A DNA stretch of 64,000 nucleotides from Escherichia coli. Its GTDB lineage: Bacteria > Pseudomonadota > Gammaproteobacteria > Enterobacterales > Enterobacteriaceae. Under the pieces are notes generated by a model. That model saw only the letters and a list, made by a program, of their open reading frames with translations, had not been told where the DNA came from and ran no database searches. A program made the translations under genes and the position numbers. The DNA lies in the NCBI RefSeq assembly GCF_044324875.1, contig NZ_CP172185.1. One strand, given 5' to 3'. Positions 10,051 to 51,787 of the stretch are shown in pieces (position 1 is the first letter of the stretch; each line of letters begins with the position of its first letter).

Positions 10051-12132
10051 ATGGAAAGCAAACGTCTGGATAATGCCGCGCTGGCGGCGGGGATTAGCCC
10101 CAATTACATCAATGCCCACGGTAAACCGCAGTCGATTAGCGCCGAAACCAAACGGCGTTTGCTTGACGCGATGCATCAACGTACCGCCACGAAAGTGGCG
10201 GTAACGCCAGTCCCGAATGTCATGGTTTATACCAGCGGCAAAAAAATGCCGATGGTGGTGGAGGGCTGCGGCGAATATAGCTGGCTGCTGACCACCGAAG
10301 AAGGAACGCAGTACAAAGGCCATGTAACGGGGGGCAAAGCGTTCAATCTACCGACGAAGCTACCGGAAGGTTATCACACGCTGACACTCACCCAGGACGA
10401 CCAGCGCGCGCATTGCCGGGTGATTGTCGCCCCGAAACGCTGTTACGAACCGCAGGCGTTGCTGAACAAACAAAAGCTGTGGGGTGCCTGCGTTCAGCTT
10501 TATACGCTGCGATCGGAAAAAAACTGGGGTATTGGGGATTTTGGCGATCTCAAAGCGATGCTGGTGGATGTGGCAAAACGTGGCGGGTCGTTCATCGGTC
10601 TGAACCCGATTCATGCCCTCTATCCGGCAAATCCGGAAAGTGCCAGCCCATACAGCCCGTCTTCTCGCCGTTGGCTGAATGTGATTTATATCGACGTTAA
10701 CGCCGTCGAAGATTTCCATCTTAGCGAAGAGGCTCAGGCCTGGTGGAAGTTGCCGACCACGCAACAGACGCTGCAACAGGCGCGGGATGCCGACTGGGTC
10801 GATTACTCCACGGTTACCGCCCTAAAAATGACAGCATTACGAATGGCGTGGAAAGGTTTCGCGCAACGTGATGATGAACAGATGGCCGCGTTTCGCCAGT
10901 TTGTTGCAGAGCAAGGCGACAGCCTGTTCTGGCAGGCGGCGTTTGACGCACTACATGCCCAGCAAGTGAAAGAGGACGAAATGCGCTGGGGCTGGCCTGC
11001 ATGGCCAGAGATGTATCAGAACGTGGATTCACCAGAAGTGCGCCAGTTCTGCGAAGAACATCGTGATGACGTCGATTTTTATCTCTGGTTGCAGTGGCTG
11101 GCTTACAGCCAGTTTGCCGACTGCTGGGAGATAAGCCAGGGCTATGAAATGCCGATTGGCTTGTATCGTGACCTGGCCGTTGGTGTAGCAGAGGGTGGAG
11201 CAGAAACCTGGTGCGACCGGGAGTTGTATTGCCTGAAAGCGTCGGTTGGCGCGCCGCCGGATATCCTCGGCCCGTTGGGGCAGAACTGGGGATTGCCGCC
11301 AATGGACCCGCATATTATCACCGCGCGTGCCTATGAACCGTTTATCGAGCTGTTGCGTGCCAATATGCAAAACTGCGGCGCATTACGAATTGACCATGTG
11401 ATGTCGATGCTGCGTTTGTGGTGGATACCGTATGGCGAGACGGCGGATCAGGGCGCGTATGTACACTATCCGGTGGATGATCTGCTCTCGATTCTGGCAC
11501 TCGAAAGTAAACGTCATCGCTGCATGGTGATTGGTGAAGATCTCGGCACGGTACCGGTAGAGATTGTCGGTAAGCTGCGCAGCAGTGGTGTGTACTCCTA
11601 CAAAGTGCTCTATTTCGAAAACGACCACGAGAAGACGTTCCGTGCACCGAAAGCGTATCCGGAGCAGTCGATGGCGGTTGCGGCGACACACGACCTGCCA
11701 ACGCTGCGTGGTTACTGGGAGAGCGGGGATCTAACGCTGGGTAAAACCCTGGGGTTGTATCCGGATGAAGTGGTACTGCGCGGTCTGTATCAGGATCGCG
11801 AACTGGCGAAGCAAGGACTACTGGATGCTCTGCATAAATATGGTTGTCTGCCAAAACGTGCCGGGCATAAGGCATCGTTGATGTCCATGACTCCGACGCT
11901 GAATCGTGGCTTACAGCGCTACATCGCCGATAGCAACAGCGCCCTGTTAGGACTACAGCCAGAAGACTGGCTGGATATGGCGGACCCGGTAAATATTCCC
12001 GGCACCAGTTACCAGTATAAAAACTGGCGGCGCAAGCTCTCCGCAACGCTTGAGGCGATGTTTGCCGATGATGGCGTGAACAAGTTGCTGAAGGATTTGG
12101 ACAGACGGCGCAGAGCGGCAGCGAAGAAGTAG
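10051..12132 (+). CDS. malQ: 4-alpha-glucanotransferase (amylomaltase)
   Basis: 693-aa ORF 10 bp downstream of malP; recognised MalQ. Confidence 0.95.
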   Translation: MESKRLDNAALAAGISPNYINAHGKPQSISAETKRRLLDAMHQRTATKVAVTPVPNVMVYTSGKKMPMVVEGCGEYSWLLTTEEGTQYKGHVTGGKAFNLPTKLPEGYHTLTLTQDDQRAHCRVIVAPKRCYEPQALLNKQKLWGACVQLYTLRSEKNWGIGDFGDLKAMLVDVAKRGGSFIGLNPIHALYPANPESASPYSPSSRRWLNVIYIDVNAVEDFHLSEEAQAWWKLPTTQQTLQQARDADWVDYSTVTALKMTALRMAWKGFAQRDDEQMAAFRQFVAEQGDSLFWQAAFDALHAQQVKEDEMRWGWPAWPEMYQNVDSPEVRQFCEEHRDDVDFYLWLQWLAYSQFADCWEISQGYEMPIGLYRDLAVGVAEGGAETWCDRELYCLKASVGAPPDILGPLGQNWGLPPMDPHIITARAYEPFIELLRANMQNCGALRIDHVMSMLRLWWIPYGETADQGAYVHYPVDDLLSILALESKRHRCMVIGEDLGTVPVEIVGKLRSSGVYSYKVLYFENDHEKTFRAPKAYPEQSMAVAATHDLPTLRGYWESGDLTLGKTLGLYPDEVVLRGLYQDRELAKQGLLDALHKYGCLPKRAGHKASLMSMTPTLNRGLQRYIADSNSALLGLQPEDWLDMADPVNIPGTSYQYKNWRRKLSATLEAMFADDGVNKLLKDLDRRRRAAAKK

Positions 12133-44334: not shown

Positions 44335-45171
44335 ATGAAGAAAAATCGCGCTTTTTTGAAGTGGGCAGGGGGCAAGTATCCCCTGCTTGATGATATTAAA
44401 CGGCATTTGCCCAAGGGCGAATGTCTGGTTGAGCCTTTTGTAGGTGCCGGGTCGGTGTTTCTCAACACCGACTTTTCTCGTTATATCCTTGCCGATATCA
44501 ATAGCGACCTGATCAGTCTCTATAACATTGTGAAGATGCGTACTGATGAGTACGTACAGGCCGCACGCGAGCTGTTTGTTCCCGAAACAAATTGCGCCGA
44601 GGTTTACTATCAGTTCCGCGAAGAGTTCAACAAAAGCCAGGATCCGTTCCGTCGGGCGGTACTGTTTTTATATTTGAACCGCTACGGTTACAACGGCCTG
44701 TGTCGTTACAATCTGCGCGGTGAGTTTAACGTGCCGTTTGGCCGCTACAAAAAACCCTATTTCCCGGAAGCAGAGTTGTATCACTTCGCTGAAAAAGCGC
44801 AGAATGCCTTTTTCTATTGTGAGTCTTACGCCGATAGCATGGCGCGCGCAGATGATGCATCCGTCGTCTATTGCGATCCGCCTTATGCGCCGCTGTCTGC
44901 GACTGCCAACTTTACGGCGTATCACACAAACAGTTTTACGCTTGAACAACAAGCGCATCTGGCGGAGATCGCCGAAGGTCTGGTTGATCGCCATATTCCA
45001 GTGCTGATCTCCAATCACGATACGATGTTAACGCGTGAGTGGTATCAGCGCGCAAAATTGCATGTCGTCAAAGTTCGACGCAGTATAAGCAGCAACGGCG
45101 GCACACGTAAAAAGGTGGACGAACTGCTGGCTTTGTACAAACCAGGAGTCGTTTCACCCGCGAAAAAATAA
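44335..45171 (+). CDS. dam: DNA adenine methyltransferase (GATC)
   Basis: 278-aa ORF; catalytic DPPY motif. Confidence 0.95.
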
Positions 45172-45188
45172 TTCTCAAGGAGAAGCGG

Positions 45189-45866
45189 ATGAAACAGTAT
45201 TTGATTGCCCCCTCAATTCTGTCGGCTGATTTTGCCCGCCTGGGTGAAGATACCGCAAAAGCCCTGGCAGCTGGCGCTGATGTCGTGCATTTTGACGTCA
45301 TGGATAACCACTATGTTCCCAATCTGACGATTGGGCCAATGGTGCTGAAATCCTTGCGTAACTACGGCATTACCGCCCCTATCGACGTACACCTGATGGT
45401 GAAACCGGTCGATCGCATTGTGCCTGATTTCGCTGCCGCTGGTGCCAGCATCATTACCTTTCATCCAGAAGCCTCCGAGCATGTTGACCGCACGCTGCAA
45501 CTGATTAAAGAAAATGGCTGTAAAGCGGGTCTGGTATTTAACCCGGCGACACCTCTGAGCTATCTGGATTACGTGATGGACAAACTGGATGTGATCCTGC
45601 TGATGTCCGTCAACCCAGGTTTCGGCGGTCAGTCTTTCATTCCGCAAACACTGGATAAACTGCGCGAAGTACGTCGTCGTATCGACGAGTCTGGCTTTGA
45701 CATTCGTCTGGAAGTGGACGGTGGCGTGAAGGTGAACAACATTGGCGAAATCGCTGCGGCGGGCGCAGATATGTTCGTCGCCGGTTCGGCAATCTTCGAC
45801 CAGCCAGACTACAAAAAAGTCATTGATGAAATGCGCAGTGAACTGGCAAAGGTAAGTCATGAATAA
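45189..45866 (+). CDS. rpe: ribulose-phosphate 3-epimerase
   Basis: 225-aa ORF recognised as Rpe. Confidence 0.95.
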
Positions 45867-46617
45867 GTTTGAAGATATTCGCGGCGTCGCTTTTGATCTC
45901 GATGGTACGCTGGTGGACAGTGCTCCTGGCTTGGCTACCGCAGTAGATATGGCGCTGTATGCGCTGGAGTTGCCCGTCGCAGGTGAAGAACGCGTTATAA
46001 CCTGGATTGGTAACGGCGCAGATGTTCTGATGGAGCGCGCATTGACCTGGGCGCGTCAGGAACGTGCGACTCTGCGTAAAACAATGGGTAAACCGCCCGT
46101 TGATGACGACATTCCGGCAGAAGAACAAGTACGTATTCTGCGTAAACTATTCGATCGCTACTATGGCGAGGTTGCCGAAGAGGGGACGTTTTTGTTCCCG
46201 CACGTTGCCGATACGCTGGGCGCATTGCAGGCTAAAGGCCTGCCGTTGGGCCTGGTCACCAACAAACCGACGCCGTTCGTCGCGCCGCTGCTGGAAGCCT
46301 TAGATATCGCTAAATACTTCAGCGTGGTGATTGGTGGTGATGATGTGCAAAACAAAAAACCGCATCCGGACCCGCTGTTACTGGTGGCTGAGCGGATGGG
46401 AATTGCTCCACAACAGATGCTGTTTGTTGGCGACTCACGCAATGATATTCAGGCAGCAAAAGCGGCAGGTTGCCCATCAGTTGGCTTAACCTACGGATAT
46501 AACTACGGCGAGGCTATCGATCTCAGCCAGCCTGATGTAATTTATCAGTCTATAAATGACCTTCTGCCCGCATTAGGGCTTCCGCATAGCGAAAATCAGG
46601 AATCGAAAAATGACTAA
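45859..46617 (+). CDS. gph: phosphoglycolate phosphatase
   Basis: 252-aa ORF; HAD motif [10 protein letters not shown]; overlaps rpe stop. Confidence 0.95.
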
Positions 46618-47614
46618 GCCCATCGTTTTTAGTGGCGCACAGCCCTCAGGTGAATTGACCATTGGTAACTACATGGGTGCGCTGCGTCAGTGGGTAAACA
46701 TGCAGGATGACTACCATTGCATTTACTGTATCGTTGACCAACACGCGATCACCGTGCGCCAGGATGCACAGAAGCTGCGTAAAGCGACGCTGGATACGCT
46801 GGCCTTGTATCTGGCTTGTGGTATCGATCCTGAGAAAAGCACCATTTTTGTTCAGTCCCACGTACCAGAACATGCGCAGTTAGGCTGGGCACTGAACTGC
46901 TATACCTACTTCGGCGAACTGAGCCGCATGACGCAGTTTAAAGATAAATCTGCGCGTTATGCCGAGAACATCAATGCTGGTCTGTTTGACTATCCGGTGC
47001 TGATGGCAGCGGACATCCTGCTGTATCAAACTAATCTGGTACCGGTGGGTGAAGACCAGAAACAGCACCTGGAACTGAGCCGCGATATCGCCCAGCGTTT
47101 TAACGCGCTGTATGGCGAGATCTTTAAAGTGCCGGAGCCGTTTATTCCGAAATCTGGCGCGCGCGTAATGTCGCTGCTGGAGCCGACCAAAAAGATGTCC
47201 AAGTCTGACGATAACCGCAATAACGTTATCGGCCTGCTGGAAGATCCGAAATCGGTGGTGAAGAAAATCAAACGCGCGGTCACCGACTCCGACGAGCCGC
47301 CGGTAGTTCGCTACGATGTGCAGAACAAAGCGGGCGTTTCCAACCTGCTGGATATCCTTTCTGCGGTAACGGGCCAGAGCATCCCGGAACTGGAAAAACA
47401 GTTCGAAGGCAAGATGTATGGTCATCTGAAAGGCGAAGTGGCTGATGCCGTTTCCGGTATGCTGACTGAATTGCAGGAACGCTATCACCGTTTCCGCAAT
47501 GACGAAGCCTTCCTGCAACAGGTGATGAAAGATGGCGCGGAAAAAGCCAGCGCACACGCTTCCCGTACGCTAAAAGCGGTGTACGAAGCGATTGGTTTTG
47601 TGGCGAAGCCGTAA
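46610..47614 (+). CDS. trpS: tryptophan--tRNA ligase
   Basis: 334-aa ORF; class I aaRS KMSKS motif. Confidence 0.95.
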
Positions 47615-47629
47615 TTTAACATTAATGCC

Positions 47630-47656
47630 AAAAACCGGGGAAACCCGGTTTTTTTA
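47630..47656 (+). terminator. rho-independent terminator of the dam-trpS operon
   Basis: ccgggg-aaa-cccgg stem followed by TTTTTTT. Confidence 0.65.
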
Positions 47657-47724
47657 TCCTCTTTTTGTAATAATCCGAAAAAATGTGAAGCGCCTCGCCG
47701 TTTCCACATCTCGCAGTTGCCACT

Positions 47725-47746
47725 TATCTTCATTTTTATGAAGATA
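47725..47746. promoter_or_regulatory. perfect 9-bp inverted repeat (candidate operator) upstream of yhfZ
   Basis: tatcttcat-tttt-atgaagata, ending 29 bp before the yhfZ ATG. Confidence 0.4.
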
Positions 47747-47774
47747 TAAATATTCATTTTATTGAAAATTTACT

Positions 47775-48680
47775 ATGCGTCGAACGTTTATCAAAAAAGA
47801 AGGCGTCGTCATCACGACACTGGCCCGTTATTTGTTGGGTGAAAAGTGCGGTAATCGACTGAAAACCATAGATGAGCTGGCAACTGAATGCCGTTCATCC
47901 GTTGGCCTGACGCAGGCCGCGTTGAAAACGCTGGAATCAAGCGGAGCGATACGGATTGAACGCCGTGGGCGCAATGGCAGTTATCTGGTCGAGATGGATA
48001 ACAAAGCATTGCTGACTCATGTGGATATCAACAACGTGGTATGTGCGATGCCCTTGCCCTATACCCGTTTGTACGAAGGCCTGGCGAGCGGATTGAAAGC
48101 CCAGTTCGATGGCATTCCTTTTTACTATGCGCATATGCGCGGCGCGGATATTCGCGTGGAGTGTTTACTTAACGGCGTGTATGACATGGCGGTTGTTTCC
48201 CGACTGGCGGCGGAAAGTTATCTCACGCAAAAAGGCTTATGCCTCGCGCTGGAGTTGGGGCCGCACACCTACGTTGGCGAGCACCAGTTGATTTGCCGTA
48301 AAGGCGAGTCCGCAAACGTGAAGCGCGTGGGGCTGGATAACCGTTCGGCGGATCAGAAAATCATGACCGATGTCTTTTTTGGCGATAGTGATGTGGAACG
48401 TGTCGATCTCTCTTATCACGAGAGTTTACAACGCATTGTTAAAGGCGATGTTGATGCGGTGATCTGGAACGTGGTGGCGGAAAACGAACTGACCATGCTG
48501 GGATTAGAAGCGACGCCGCTCACAGACGATCCGCGATTTTTACAGGCCACCGAAGCCGTGATCCTGACGCGAGTCGATGATTACCCAATGCAACAATTGC
48601 TGCGTGCAGTTGTTGATAAACAGGCCCTGCTTGCCCATCAACAACGAGTGGTCAGTGGGGAACAGGAACCCAGTTATTAA
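47775..48680 (+). CDS. yhfZ: putative HTH transcriptional regulator of the yhf cluster
   Basis: 301-aa ORF recognised as YhfZ. Confidence 0.8.
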   Translation: MRRTFIKKEGVVITTLARYLLGEKCGNRLKTIDELATECRSSVGLTQAALKTLESSGAIRIERRGRNGSYLVEMDNKALLTHVDINNVVCAMPLPYTRLYEGLASGLKAQFDGIPFYYAHMRGADIRVECLLNGVYDMAVVSRLAAESYLTQKGLCLALELGPHTYVGEHQLICRKGESANVKRVGLDNRSADQKIMTDVFFGDSDVERVDLSYHESLQRIVKGDVDAVIWNVVAENELTMLGLEATPLTDDPRFLQATEAVILTRVDDYPMQQLLRAVVDKQALLAHQQRVVSGEQEPSY

Positions 48681-48696
48681 ACGAAAGGCATCTGAA

Positions 48697-48807
48697 ATGG
48701 AAACCAGACTCAACCTGCTTTGCGATGCAGGCGTTATTGATAAGGACATCTGCAAAGGCATGATGCAGGTCGTCAACGTACTGGAAACTGAGTGTCATCT
48801 ACCGGTG
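48697..48807 (+). pseudogene. yhfY: 5' fragment (37 codons) of PRD-domain gene yhfY, interrupted by IS insertion
   Basis: ATG at 48697 with upstream AAAGG; frame METRLNLLCDAGVIDKDICKGMMQVVNVLETECHLPV runs into the IS end. Confidence 0.75.
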
Positions 48808-48880
48808 TGCGTATTCCGCTCTATTCGATCACGGATTGGCATCGAAGTCCGATCAGCGATTCGCATCCATTCGATCAACC
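48808..48880. repeat. IS21-family terminal repeat block (istB-proximal end)
   Basis: Reverse complement of the other end aligns over the tcgatc motif; repeated cgatcacggattggcatcg / cgatcagcgattcgcatcc units. Confidence 0.6.
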
Positions 48881-48906
48881 GGGAACTTAACTTTTTCTAC
48901 CGCTTT

Positions 48907-49662
48907 TTAACGCGTTTTTTCGCTGCTTTCCACTACCGGGGGATTTTTCCTCAGTGACTCTCCCTGAAGGACCACTCGGTGTGAGTTATGTACCAGTCTG
49001 TCCAGGATGGCATCTGCTGTTGTTGGGTTCTCCATCAGACCATGCCATTTATCTACCGGGAACTGGCTTACCACTATCGTGCTGCTTTGTCCGTAACGAT
49101 CCTCTATGAGCTCCAGAAGGTCATTACACTGGGCGTTACTTAACTGTTCCAGCCCCAGATCGTCCAGGATTAGAACCTGTATTTTTTGCAACTGTTTCAG
49201 ATATTTCAGCCAGCTGCCATCAACACGTCCCTGAGCCAGTTGTTCCAGTAATCGCCCGGTTCTACAGTACCGGACGCTGTGTTTCTGTCGACATGCCTGT
49301 TCGCCCAGCGCATTGGCTATCCAGCTCTTGCCACATCCTGTCGGACCGGTTATCAGCAGGTTTTTCCTGTGGGTTATGTAGTGGCCGTTCAGCAGTTCTC
49401 TCATCTGTTCAGCCCGCAGACCTCTTGAGGCCGGATAGCGCAGCCCTTCCGGTGTTGCCTGGTATTTCAGGCCGGCATTTTTTCTCAACCGTGCCACACG
49501 GCTGTTTTCCCTGCTCAGAAGCTCGTCATCAACCAGCAGCGTCAGCCTTTCCTCGAACGACAGTTCGTCGTAGGTCTGAGGCGTTTCCCGCTGCCGTATC
49601 AGGCTCCCGGCCATCGCCGGGAGTTTCAGTTGGGTCAGTTTGTTTAACAGGTTATCACTCAT
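48907..49662 (-). CDS. istB: IS21-family transposition helper ATPase IstB
   Basis: 251-aa frame from MSDNLLNKL with AAGGA RBS; Walker A GPTGCGKSW; start overlaps istA 3' end. Confidence 0.85.
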   Translation of the reverse strand: MSDNLLNKLTQLKLPAMAGSLIRQRETPQTYDELSFEERLTLLVDDELLSRENSRVARLRKNAGLKYQATPEGLRYPASRGLRAEQMRELLNGHYITHRKNLLITGPTGCGKSWIANALGEQACRQKHSVRYCRTGRLLEQLAQGRVDGSWLKYLKQLQKIQVLILDDLGLEQLSNAQCNDLLELIEDRYGQSSTIVVSQFPVDKWHGLMENPTTADAILDRLVHNSHRVVLQGESLRKNPPVVESSEKTR

Positions 49663-49678
49663 ACTGTTGTTCCTTCTG

Positions 49679-51214
49679 TCAGTGGTAGTAGCCCGGACCA
49701 CGCAGGTTTTCATGCTCTGAAGCATATGCCGGATGTTGTTCGCCCTGGCGGGATAATGGAAGCTCCAGGTTCTCCCGATGGTGACGCAGCAGATTGTCGA
49801 TAAAGCGTCTGTCAGGGGCGTTATAGTGCAGGGCAACGTAACAGGCCTTTTCCAGCCGTTCCGGGCCGTATTTTTTCTGAAGTGCCAGCAGCCCCAGAAC
49901 TGCACGATAAGCCAGTTCCGGATGGGGTTTTGCCTTCAGCATGGATTCAACCACCCGGCCTGTGGACGGGCCCGTACGTTTTCCCTGCTCGATCAGGCGT
50001 TCCGGTGTCCATGTCCCGTGCTGCCGGTGGCGCTCTGGCATGTGAAGCGGATTGGTTGTGTGTTTATATTCATGTGTGCTGCGCGGATGTTGCGCCACAC
50101 ACTGCCCCTTGTGCCAGAGCTGTACCACCGACTGCCCCGCCTTCAGTGACAGACGCTGACCGACCAGTTCGTGTGGAACGGAGTACCAGTGACGGGCATA
50201 TTCAACGTGGTAGTCAGGGCCAACCTTCACAGCTTTGTATTCCGTGTATTCATAAGGTGCCAGAGGCAGCGGAGAGAGTGCTGGCGCATCCAGTATGCGG
50301 AAGCGTTCTGCACGGGTTTGATTGCCGTACCCCTTCATTGGCCGGTTATTCATGTCTGTCAGTAACTCCCTAAGGCGCGCATTCAGCGCCCTGAGCGTGT
50401 GGAAGGTTTCATTACGGATGCGGGCAAGAAGCCATCGTTCAACGATGAGGACGCCGTTTTCTGCTTTTGGTTTATCTTTAGGTTTGCGTGGTCGGGCCGG
50501 GATGATAACCGTGCCATAGTGCTCAGCCAGTGCCTGATAACTGTCGTTGATGACAGGCTCATATCGATCGGCCTTTTTCACTGCGCTTCTGAGGTTATCG
50601 GGGATGAGCAGCTTCGGTACGCCGCCCAGGAAGGTCAGGCAACGGCTGTGGGCATTTAACCATGACATCATGTCCTGACCTTCGCACGCTTCAACGTAGG
50701 TATAGTTGGACGCCCCCATTACGGCCACGAAGATTGCCACGCGGCGTATCTCACCGGTGTCCGGATTAATAACAGGAACCGTAGGACCACAGAAGTCGAT
50801 AAAAAGCTTTTCGCCGGCACGATGCTCCTGGCGCATGGAGAGACGTCGCGTTTTTTTCCACTCCCGGTAGCAACGGCAGAAGTGCGAGTATCCCATCGCT
50901 TTGTTACCCGCCTGTGCCTTGTATTCCATCCACAACAGTTGCCGCGTCACACCTGGTTTTCTCATTTCCGTATCGAAGTACAACATGTCAGGCATTACAA
51001 GCTCTGATGCAAAGGTGTCTTTGGGCGGAAAAATGAGTTTCTCCAGCGTGTCATGGGATATATCAGCAGGTAATGGCCATGACAGAGAAGAGGCTTTGAA
51101 GCGGGCAAGAACCTCAAAAACGGTTGAGGCGCTGATGTGTAACGTCAGTCCGATACAACGGTTAGTCAGCTTCTTGTCGAACTTGAGCTGAAGGATCTTA
51201 AAACAGGTTTCCAT
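49679..51214 (-). CDS. istA: IS21-family transposase IstA
   Basis: 511-aa frame from METCFKILQ with AGGAG 5 nt upstream; DDE-integrase region with IstA-like RPRKPKDKPKAENGV motif; longer ORF-track start would lie in the terminal repeats. Confidence 0.8.
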   Translation of the reverse strand: METCFKILQLKFDKKLTNRCIGLTLHISASTVFEVLARFKASSLSWPLPADISHDTLEKLIFPPKDTFASELVMPDMLYFDTEMRKPGVTRQLLWMEYKAQAGNKAMGYSHFCRCYREWKKTRRLSMRQEHRAGEKLFIDFCGPTVPVINPDTGEIRRVAIFVAVMGASNYTYVEACEGQDMMSWLNAHSRCLTFLGGVPKLLIPDNLRSAVKKADRYEPVINDSYQALAEHYGTVIIPARPRKPKDKPKAENGVLIVERWLLARIRNETFHTLRALNARLRELLTDMNNRPMKGYGNQTRAERFRILDAPALSPLPLAPYEYTEYKAVKVGPDYHVEYARHWYSVPHELVGQRLSLKAGQSVVQLWHKGQCVAQHPRSTHEYKHTTNPLHMPERHRQHGTWTPERLIEQGKRTGPSTGRVVESMLKAKPHPELAYRAVLGLLALQKKYGPERLEKACYVALHYNAPDRRFIDNLLRHHRENLELPLSRQGEQHPAYASEHENLRGPGYYH

Positions 51215-51337
51215 AGTGCTCCTGGATTTTCTCTTTCTGGACATTGACGTCTCCACTGGTTTAAACACGGCAATGGAGACTGTGGTGAAAAGAGTTAATT
51301 CCCGGAGTGACTGGCAGGATGCCAATCAATGATCGGA

Positions 51338-51445
51338 AGCATGCCAAATCGTGATCGATTGTGATGCCAAACTGTGATCGGAGATGGATGCCAAATCATG
51401 ATCGATTCGAATGCCAAACTGCGATCGATTCAGATGCCATTTTGC
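51338..51445. repeat. IS21-family terminal repeat block (istA-proximal end) with about 5 iterated ~22-bp units
   Basis: gcatgccaaatcgtgatcgatt / gatgccaaactgtgatcgg / gatgccaaatcatgatcgatt / gaatgccaaactgcgatcgatt / cagatgccattttgc. Confidence 0.7.
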
Positions 51446-51446
51446 A

Positions 51447-51704
51447 CCGGTGCGCAGCGAGCAAGGAATGATGGCGATGACACATATGGCGAGCGCACTG
51501 ATGCGCAGTCGCCGTGGTGAAGAAATAGAGCCGCTGGACGCCGAATTGCTGGCAGAACTGGCGCAATCCAGCCACTGGCAAGCCGTTGTGCAATTGCATC
51601 AGGTATTGTTGAAGGAATTTGCACTGGAAGTTAACTCGTGTGAAGAAGGCTATTTGCTGGCCAACCTTTATGGATTATGGATGGCCGCGAACGAAGAGGC
51701 CTGA
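51447..51704 (+). pseudogene. yhfY: 3' fragment (83 codons) of yhfY separated from its 5' part by the IS
   Basis: Frame RSEQGMMAMTHMASALMRS...WMAANEEA is in phase with the 5' fragment once the IS and one copy of accggtg are removed. Confidence 0.75.
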
Positions 51705-51787
51705 AGCTCACTACAAATCCACGTCGCATATCTTAAATATTCAAAAAAATGAATATTTGATTCAAGGAACAGAAACGAGGCAACAAG

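Follow-up and report, generated by a model that had tools for sequence, protein, structure and literature searches.

An ISSso4-type IS21-family insertion in yhfY of Escherichia coli, with a presumed regulatory role for YhfY and possible partial polarity on the downstream yhf genes

In the window analysed here, 64,000 nucleotides of Escherichia coli contig NZ_CP172185.1 (assembly GCF_044324875.1), the small gene yhfY is present in two pieces with an insertion sequence (IS) between them. The locus raises the question of whether these pieces are the remains of a single intact gene, what kind of protein that gene encoded, and whether the insertion affects yhfY only or also the co-oriented genes that follow it. 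Table 1 gives the features on which the analysis rests.

Table 1. Features of the interrupted yhfY locus (positions in the window)
Feature	Position	Strand	Remarks
Palindrome 1, TATCTTCA-N6-TGAAGATA	47725-47746		candidate operator, upstream of yhfZ ATG
Palindrome 2, AATATTCA-N6-TGAAAATT	47749-47770		candidate operator, in tandem with palindrome 1, directly upstream of yhfZ ATG
yhfZ	47775-48680	+	GntR-type regulator, 301 aa, intact; NCBIfam NF041241 YhfZ_full, 373.9 bits; annotation
yhfY 5' fragment	48697-48807	+	111 nt, codons 1-37, ending ...CTA CCG GTG
Target-site duplication, left copy	48802-48807		CCGGTG
IS21-family IS, ISSso4 type	48808-51446	-	2639 bp, 5'-TG...CA-3' termini, 100% identical copies elsewhere
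Two subterminal repeats	48826-48866	-	ATGCCAA-N-GATCG type, end distal to istB
istB	48907-49662	-	helper AAA+ ATPase, 251 aa, intact; NF038214, 257.8 bits; PGAP
istA	49679-51214	-	IS21-family transposase (DDE), 511 aa, intact; NF033546, 284.7 bits; PGAP
Five direct subterminal repeats	51319-51427	+	ATGCCAAA-N4-GATCG, period ~23 bp, istA-proximal end
Target-site duplication, right copy	51447-51452		CCGGTG
yhfY 3' fragment	51453-51704	+	codons 38-120 (83 codons, 51453-51701), stop 51702-51704
26-nt block TTAAATATTCAAAAAAATGAATATTT, palindrome AAATATTCA-N6-TGAATATTT	51733-51758		yhfY-yhfX gap; candidate operator/control site for yhfX
yhfX	51788-52951	+	full length
yhfW	52952-54178	+	full length
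php	54175-55053	+	full length
yhfU	55064-55417	+	full length
yhfT	55429-56733	+	full length
yhfS	56745-57830	+	full length; beyond ~56950 by ORF only

By removing the element together with one of the two CCGGTG direct repeats that flank it, we recovered a yhfY reading frame of 363 nt (120 codons). The split into 37 and 83 codons in the same phase, as proposed by the sequence-only reading, proved exact in both coordinates and phase, and the joined fragments translate to the 120-aa protein it had quoted. Left as it stands, the frame of the 5' fragment continues into the IS up to a stop at 48955-48957, making an 86-aa fusion ORF. The comparison with an IS-free YhfY that the same reading had called for bears the reconstruction out. 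Over 9164 collinear bp, only two synonymous changes separate the IS-free close relative GCA_044682655.1 from the reconstructed window, thus its YhfY is identical to the reconstructed protein over all 120 aa. The annotated YhfY of E. coli 1190 and of O158:H23 are 98% and 96% identical to it, without gaps, and at the empty site both carry CCGGTG once (CATCTACCGGTGCGCAGC / ...GGTGTGCAGC). In 5066 E. coli genomes the empty site can be aligned end to end with the reconstruction. The "excision" of the IS is a conceptual reconstruction only; elements of the IS21 family are not known to leave a restored donor site when they transpose.

The inserted DNA is in all structural respects an ISSso4-type element, with istA followed by istB, TG...CA termini, subterminal repeats and a 6-bp target duplication; only its insertion site, codons 36-38 of yhfY, is particular here. 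Both proteins score above the NCBIfam cut-offs (160 bits for NF033546 and 200 bits for NF038214). The ends, set by comparison with other copies of the element, read TGCG...TGCA, with imperfect inverted ends and multiple subterminal repeats as in the IS21 family, the istB-side repeats being inverted copies of the istA-side set, and the duplication falls within the 4-8 bp of that family. Another copy (L004) ends in the same way and is flanked by a different 6-bp duplication, ATTGAC. Near-full-length copies, many of them 100% identical, occur in 225 genomes on E. coli chromosomes and plasmids, and since these sites are unrelated to one another the element is mobile, as expected of the family. The name ISSso4 is the NCBI PGAP label on IstB of identical copies and does not come from an ISfinder reference sequence. 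Given the identical copies elsewhere, the target-site duplication and flanking sequence collinear with the empty site, the insertion is not a chance arrangement, and the complete identity to other copies further indicates that it is recent.

What was lost with yhfY? In reference E. coli the gene at this position is annotated as "PRD domain-containing protein" or "hypothetical protein", whereas here it is interrupted. Pfam PF00874 (PRD) matches this YhfY at E=0.006 (17.3 bits), and among 41 YhfY homologues it reaches E<=0.001 in 3 and E<=0.1 in 28. Against TIGR03582, the EF_0829/AHA_3910 family of stand-alone PRD proteins, YhfY scores 27.6 bits, below the cut-off of 69.35, and so appears to be a distant relative of that family rather than a member. 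Its fold is a helical bundle as in PRD modules; it shares the all-helical fold and the size of LSEI_2718 (PDB 3nuf) and of PRD1 of LicT/GlcT, but at about 15% sequence identity and under the Pfam and TIGR03582 thresholds. Among YhfY homologues H48 (helix 40-58) is invariant and H86 (helix 79-90) near-invariant, and H48 aligns with the His of the 3nuf TNH motif, a conserved helix histidine. YhfY is PRD-like at the level of fold and is probably a stand-alone PRD module, with neither an RNA-binding CAT domain nor a DNA-binding domain. H86 and the conserved motif TH48MAxALMRSRRGE both lie in the 3' fragment. The 37-codon N-terminal stub retains the first two predicted helices only, and lacks helices 3-6 and with them both conserved histidines, a null allele. 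That yhfY is inactivated, as had been claimed, follows from an interruption after codon 37: the allele must be null. The description of YhfY as a likely regulatory protein is supported with the caveat that "regulatory" is read from the fold, and YhfY would act as an accessory in regulating the yhfZ / yhfXW-php-yhfUTS cluster. The searchable literature yielded neither experiments on YhfY, YhfZ or the cluster's transcription nor a functional study of yhfY/yhfZ/yhfX or yhfW/T/U/S.

The position of yhfY between yhfZ and yhfXW-php-yhfUTS, given earlier from the letters, agrees with annotation and synteny. All eight genes are co-oriented, with gaps of 16 bp (yhfZ-yhfY) and 83 bp (yhfY-yhfX), and in at least seven enterobacterial genera the order yhfZ-yhfY-yhfX is kept with a YhfY of 118-121 aa. 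The downstream genes differ from those of GCA_044682655.1 by one synonymous change up to ~56950, at the start of yhfS. The yhfY-yhfX gap showed no terminator-like site, which permits read-through from yhfY into yhfX. A search of this gap for a promoter, as earlier suggested, had a mixed outcome: no sigma-70 consensus or promoter was detected in the 83 bp, and a conserved palindromic block was. This 26-nt block is near-invariant in seven genera and ends 30 nt before the yhfX ATG, the remainder of the gap being unalignable; its core, TTCA-N6-TGAA, is common to the two palindromes upstream of yhfZ, which are themselves kept in the seven genera. A reading of the palindrome as an RNA hairpin is not favoured: the fold of the gap is barely stabler than shuffles (z = -1.95), and arm changes in three genera are uncompensated. 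An Rfam scan of 47000-53000 gave a sub-threshold chance match only. The near-invariance of the block and the related palindromes upstream of yhfZ point to separate control of yhfX, which probably has a regulated region of its own, marked by the palindrome at 51733-51758.

Our preferred explanation, to which as a whole we assign a probability of about 0.9, combines a recent IS insertion and a null yhfY with an inferred regulatory role and partial polarity. An intact ISSso4-type IS21-family element has recently transposed into codons 36-38 of yhfY, duplicating CCGGTG, with its own genes oriented opposite to yhfY. The insertion would block any read-through transcription from the yhfZ promoter; with yhfX under its own control region, the downstream genes may lose proper regulation or part of their expression without being silenced. 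Both the operator function of the palindromes and the partial polarity are inferred. More tentatively, the two control regions may share the TTCA-N6-TGAA operator, bound by YhfZ, with a PTS-phosphorylatable PRD protein YhfY modulating YhfZ; this we think unlikely to be correct in full.

Polarity on the downstream genes had been judged probable if they are co-transcribed from the yhfZ side; for yhfX-yhfS it is a possible rather than an established consequence of the insertion. Classical polar IS insertions in operons are known, for example IS1/IS2 in gal and lac, and here too an upstream gene in a cluster of common orientation carries the IS, with terminator-like hairpins in the long untranslated stretch that follows. 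A single operon yhfZ-yhfY-yhfXW-php-yhfUTS driven by the yhfZ promoter only, in which the insertion is strongly polar and the six downstream genes are silenced, would fit the common orientation and short gaps, and a yhfY-yhfX gap devoid of both terminator-like site and sigma-70 consensus. Read-through would moreover run into ~2.5 kb of IS sequence transcribed in antisense and left untranslated, in which terminator-like hairpins lie on the + strand at 49457 and 49957; by Rho-dependent polarity such RNA would bring it to a halt. No sigma-70 promoter directed out of the IS towards yhfX was found. However, the classical cases differ in that here a conserved control element stands between the IS and yhfX and that yhfY-yhfX co-transcription is only presumed. 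The near-invariance of the 26-nt block in seven genera and the core it shares with the yhfZ sites are typical of a second regulated promoter, and an operon table begins a unit at yhfX as its first gene (PMC4448311), although that listing may be a computational prediction. We regard the single operon as the less probable arrangement, if a substantial one. Alternatively, the palindrome could serve the one promoter at yhfZ as a distal operator or roadblock, and polarity would then be complete.

A second possibility is that this lineage can do without yhfY and perhaps without the entire yhf cluster, so that the insertion is a step of neutral decay with no phenotypic consequence. Among 5426 complete E. 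coli genomes, 348 have no such locus at all, and public protein sets hold several YhfY variants with independent frameshifts or truncations, but some of the truncated ones may be sequencing errors. The lack of damage besides the insertion would fit a very recent event on which selection has yet to act. Against this stand the retention of cluster order and YhfY length across the enterobacterial genera and the intactness of all downstream genes, and we consider neutral decay unlikely. That an assembler wrongly placed an IS copy into yhfY is highly improbable: in some strains a genome offers as many as 23 matches to this IS family, a source of confusion for short-read assemblies, and the same junction was covered by no genome among the 5426 complete ones of E. 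coli and matched exactly in no species-representative genome, but a perfect 6-bp duplication, exact IS termini and collinear flanks are the signature of real transposition, and mis-assembly does not produce a target duplication. Strain 3R, which matched the whole query at 100%, was rejected as a carrier of the same insertion; its IS sits in a dynamin-family gene, at a target that happens to start CCGG. Neither the 97-aa nor the 86-aa junction ORF had an exact match on record, and the 97-aa YhfY-like proteins returned by homology search are frameshift variants, not the IS-junction ORF.

The event itself, a known and active IS knocking out a small non-essential gene, is an ordinary and well-understood kind of mutation, part of routine genome plasticity. 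In annotation, yhfY should here stand as a pseudogene, and neither junction ORF (86 aa and 97 aa) should be called a gene. The strain is also a naturally occurring yhfY null, and its background has a near-identical counterpart free of the IS. Of greater use are the fold-level evidence that YhfY is a stand-alone PRD module and the strongly conserved operator-like palindromes upstream of yhfZ and yhfX, through which the control of the uncharacterised yhfXW-php-yhfUTS cluster can be approached by experiment. If control by YhfZ and YhfY through two regions were true, the IS-bearing strain and its IS-free relative would form a ready natural isogenic pair, which could reveal the regulation, and thereby the substrate, of the uncharacterised catabolic yhf cluster.

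The yhfY gene starts at the ATG at 48697, 16 bp past the yhfZ stop, and runs for 37 codons (...CAT CTA CCG GTG, up to 48807) before giving way from 48808 to TGCGTATTCCGC...; it resumes at 51453 (CGC AGC GAG CAA...) and stops at 51702-51704. The intervening DNA is an ISSso4-type member of the IS21 family, a known IS. Its istA and istB are so annotated on identical copies in RefSeq genomes, the repeated subterminal motifs at both ends are typical of the family, and copies elsewhere match as far as window position 51446. Near-full-length copies occur in 225 E. coli genomes, many of them 100% identical, and the copy in GPEC1040 has identical termini with its own 6-bp duplication, ATTGAC. Two independent insertions, in L001 (a locus with another copy of the element) and in the window, have ACCGG at the target (TTACCGGG, CTACCGGTG; L001 8990-9000 / 11639-11643 against window 48800-48807), the third target ATTGAC being unrelated; this may reflect chance or a weak target preference.

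Features of the interrupted yhf locus and of the inserted element (window coordinates)
Feature	Position	Strand	Remarks
yhfZ-yhfY-yhfX-yhfW-php-yhfU-yhfT-yhfS cluster	47775-57830	+	flanked by trpS and frlR
Tandem TTCA-N6-TGAA sites	47725-47746 and 47749-47770		just 5' of yhfZ ATG
CCGGTG hexamer, left of element	48802-48807
IS21-family element	48808-51446	genes on -	2639 bp, starts TG, ends CA
Two inverted copies of ATGCCAAA-N4-GATCG	48826-48866		subterminal repeats
istB, helper ATPase	49662-48907	-	251 aa, well above curated NCBIfam cut-off
istA, IS21-family transposase	51214-49679	-	511 aa, well above curated NCBIfam cut-off
Five direct copies of ATGCCAAA-N4-GATCG	51319-51427		subterminal repeats
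CCGGTG hexamer, right of element	51447-51452
Palindrome AAATATTCA-N6-TGAATATTT	51735-51758		yhfY-yhfX gap

Removal of the IS and one CCGGTG leaves 363 nt, the exact 120-codon frame that the sequence-only reading had described, and the encoded protein is the one it gave. This protein aligns without gaps to the annotated YhfY of the IS-free E. coli strains 1190 (98% identical) and O158:H23 (96%), whose empty sites carry a single CCGGTG, and 5066 complete E. coli genomes align over the full length of the reconstructed site (856 bp). As the best control, exact matches to the YhfX of the window led us to two IS-free contigs, L006 (GCA_044682655.1) and L007, whose yhfY departs from the reconstruction at a single synonymous base; across 9164 collinear bp, L006 1-9164 and window 45143-56951 show two differences, both synonymous. 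The boundaries, the empty sites and the comparison with L006 together establish that the insertion is real, simple and recent; the target duplication and exact termini make an assembly artefact very unlikely. The IS-yhfY junction was absent from complete E. coli genomes, species-representative genomes and recorded gene calls. Of the complete RefSeq E. coli genomes, even the best match reaches no more than 97.8% identity in the yhfY region and 99.4% in the 8.8 kb upstream, indicating that the window's lineage is absent from complete genomes. IS21 elements undergo copy-type movement via a tandem or junction intermediate and are not known to excise precisely. Reversion of yhfY would depend on the host deleting the DNA between the two 6-bp repeats, a rare event; as arithmetic, the restoration of the frame by excision holds.

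The assignment of YhfY as a PRD protein is supported at the level of the fold, but its sequence scores fall below the family thresholds. The Pfam PRD profile matches YhfY at E=0.006 (among 41 homologues, 28 at E<=0.1 and only 3 at E<=0.001), and TIGR03582, the stand-alone PRD family EF_0829/AHA_3910, gives 27.6 bits, its cut-off being 69.35. The top two PDB entries for a profile of the 41 enterobacterial homologues are both PRD proteins, 3nuf (the stand-alone LSEI_2718) and the AtxA PRD1 region; 3nuf and AtxA PRD proteins also appear among the low-rmsd Foldseek matches, with E-values that are not significant. PRDs of the LicT/BglG type carry two phosphorylatable histidines on two different helices. 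In YhfY, H48 (within the invariant motif TH-MA-ALMRSRRGE) and H86 lie on separate helices, the arrangement that would be expected of such residues, and a regulatory role for YhfY is plausible. The IS breaks the protein between helices two and three, leaving a stub without H48 and H86, and the allele is thus null. Gene callers are likely to annotate two junction ORFs wrongly as genes: one of 86 aa (48697-48957, +), joining the 5' stub to 49 IS codons, and one of 97 aa (51411-51704, +), whose ATG lies in the IS end in frame with the 3' part of yhfY and ahead of which no outward promoter was detected at the IS end.

The sequence-only reading also took the insertion to be probably polar on the downstream genes, if these are co-transcribed from the yhfZ side. 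Full polarity from a single yhfZ promoter seems to us somewhat doubtful. The yhf genes, every one full length downstream of yhfY, all share one orientation, the 83-bp yhfY-yhfX gap has no terminator-like site, and any yhfZ transcript would have to pass through roughly 2.5 kb of IS sequence, transcribed antisense and left untranslated, in which terminator-like hairpins lie at 49457 and 49957. Against this, yhfX is the start of a unit in one operon listing, which may itself be a prediction (PMC4448311), and the gap holds a conserved palindromic block (51733-51758) whose core matches two sites before yhfZ. A sigma-70 consensus was not detected in the gap, nor one reading out of the IS. The 64-kb window has four copies of the TTCA-N6-TGAA core (0.8 expected), three of them at the yhf locus. 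We compared E. coli with Citrobacter, Cedecea, Salmonella, [Enterobacter] lignolyticus, Dryocola and Buttiauxella, all six fetched loci keeping the yhf gene order. The 26-nt block TTAAATATTCAAAAAAATGA(A/T)(T/G)ATTT is near-invariant in all seven genera while the remaining gap is unalignable, and both yhfZ-proximal palindromes are likewise near-invariant amid intergenic DNA that cannot be aligned. Since one arm is altered (TGAT) in three genera with no compensating change in the other, and the RNA fold of the gap is only marginally stable, we read the block as a putative protein-binding DNA site, for which YhfZ is the obvious candidate. The three palindromes, of which we found no description in the searchable literature, are thus a candidate shared operator, with YhfZ possibly its regulator. 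On our reading a regulated control region belonging to yhfX itself is probable, and the insertion would then remove a read-through contribution and the YhfY input without silencing the operon. Further upstream, trpS is followed by a strong hairpin with a T-run (AAAAACCGGGGAAACCCGGTTTTTTT, 47620-47660) that looks like its terminator; yhfZ has been listed among genes with BIME-type repeats upstream (2010 paper, PMC2965389).

Loss of yhfY may be tolerated, as 348 of the 5426 complete E. coli genomes have no yhf locus and several YhfY variants in public data are frameshifted. Many public variants (P0094, P0100, P0104, P0112-P0114, P0119, P0120) are broken at a near-identical place (LLAELAQSSHW, codons about 70-76, window 51549-51570) where the DNA has short CTGGC/CCAGCC repeats, and could reflect real, recurrent pseudogenisation or sequencing errors. 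In a Yersinia sp. locus (L010, GCA_052217145.1, 6001-7841) the yhfY homologue adjoins only a yhfW-like phosphopentomutase gene, without yhfZ, yhfX or php-yhfS alongside, perhaps what is left of the cluster or a minimal form of it.

Nothing on the function of YhfY, YhfZ or the yhf cluster turned up in the searchable literature. A known IS in a known gene, with insertional inactivation and possible polarity, is a textbook phenomenon, and the finding is correct but ordinary; more may come of the conserved TTCA-N6-TGAA sites, of placing YhfY among PRD proteins by its fold, and of having a near-isogenic relative that lacks the IS.
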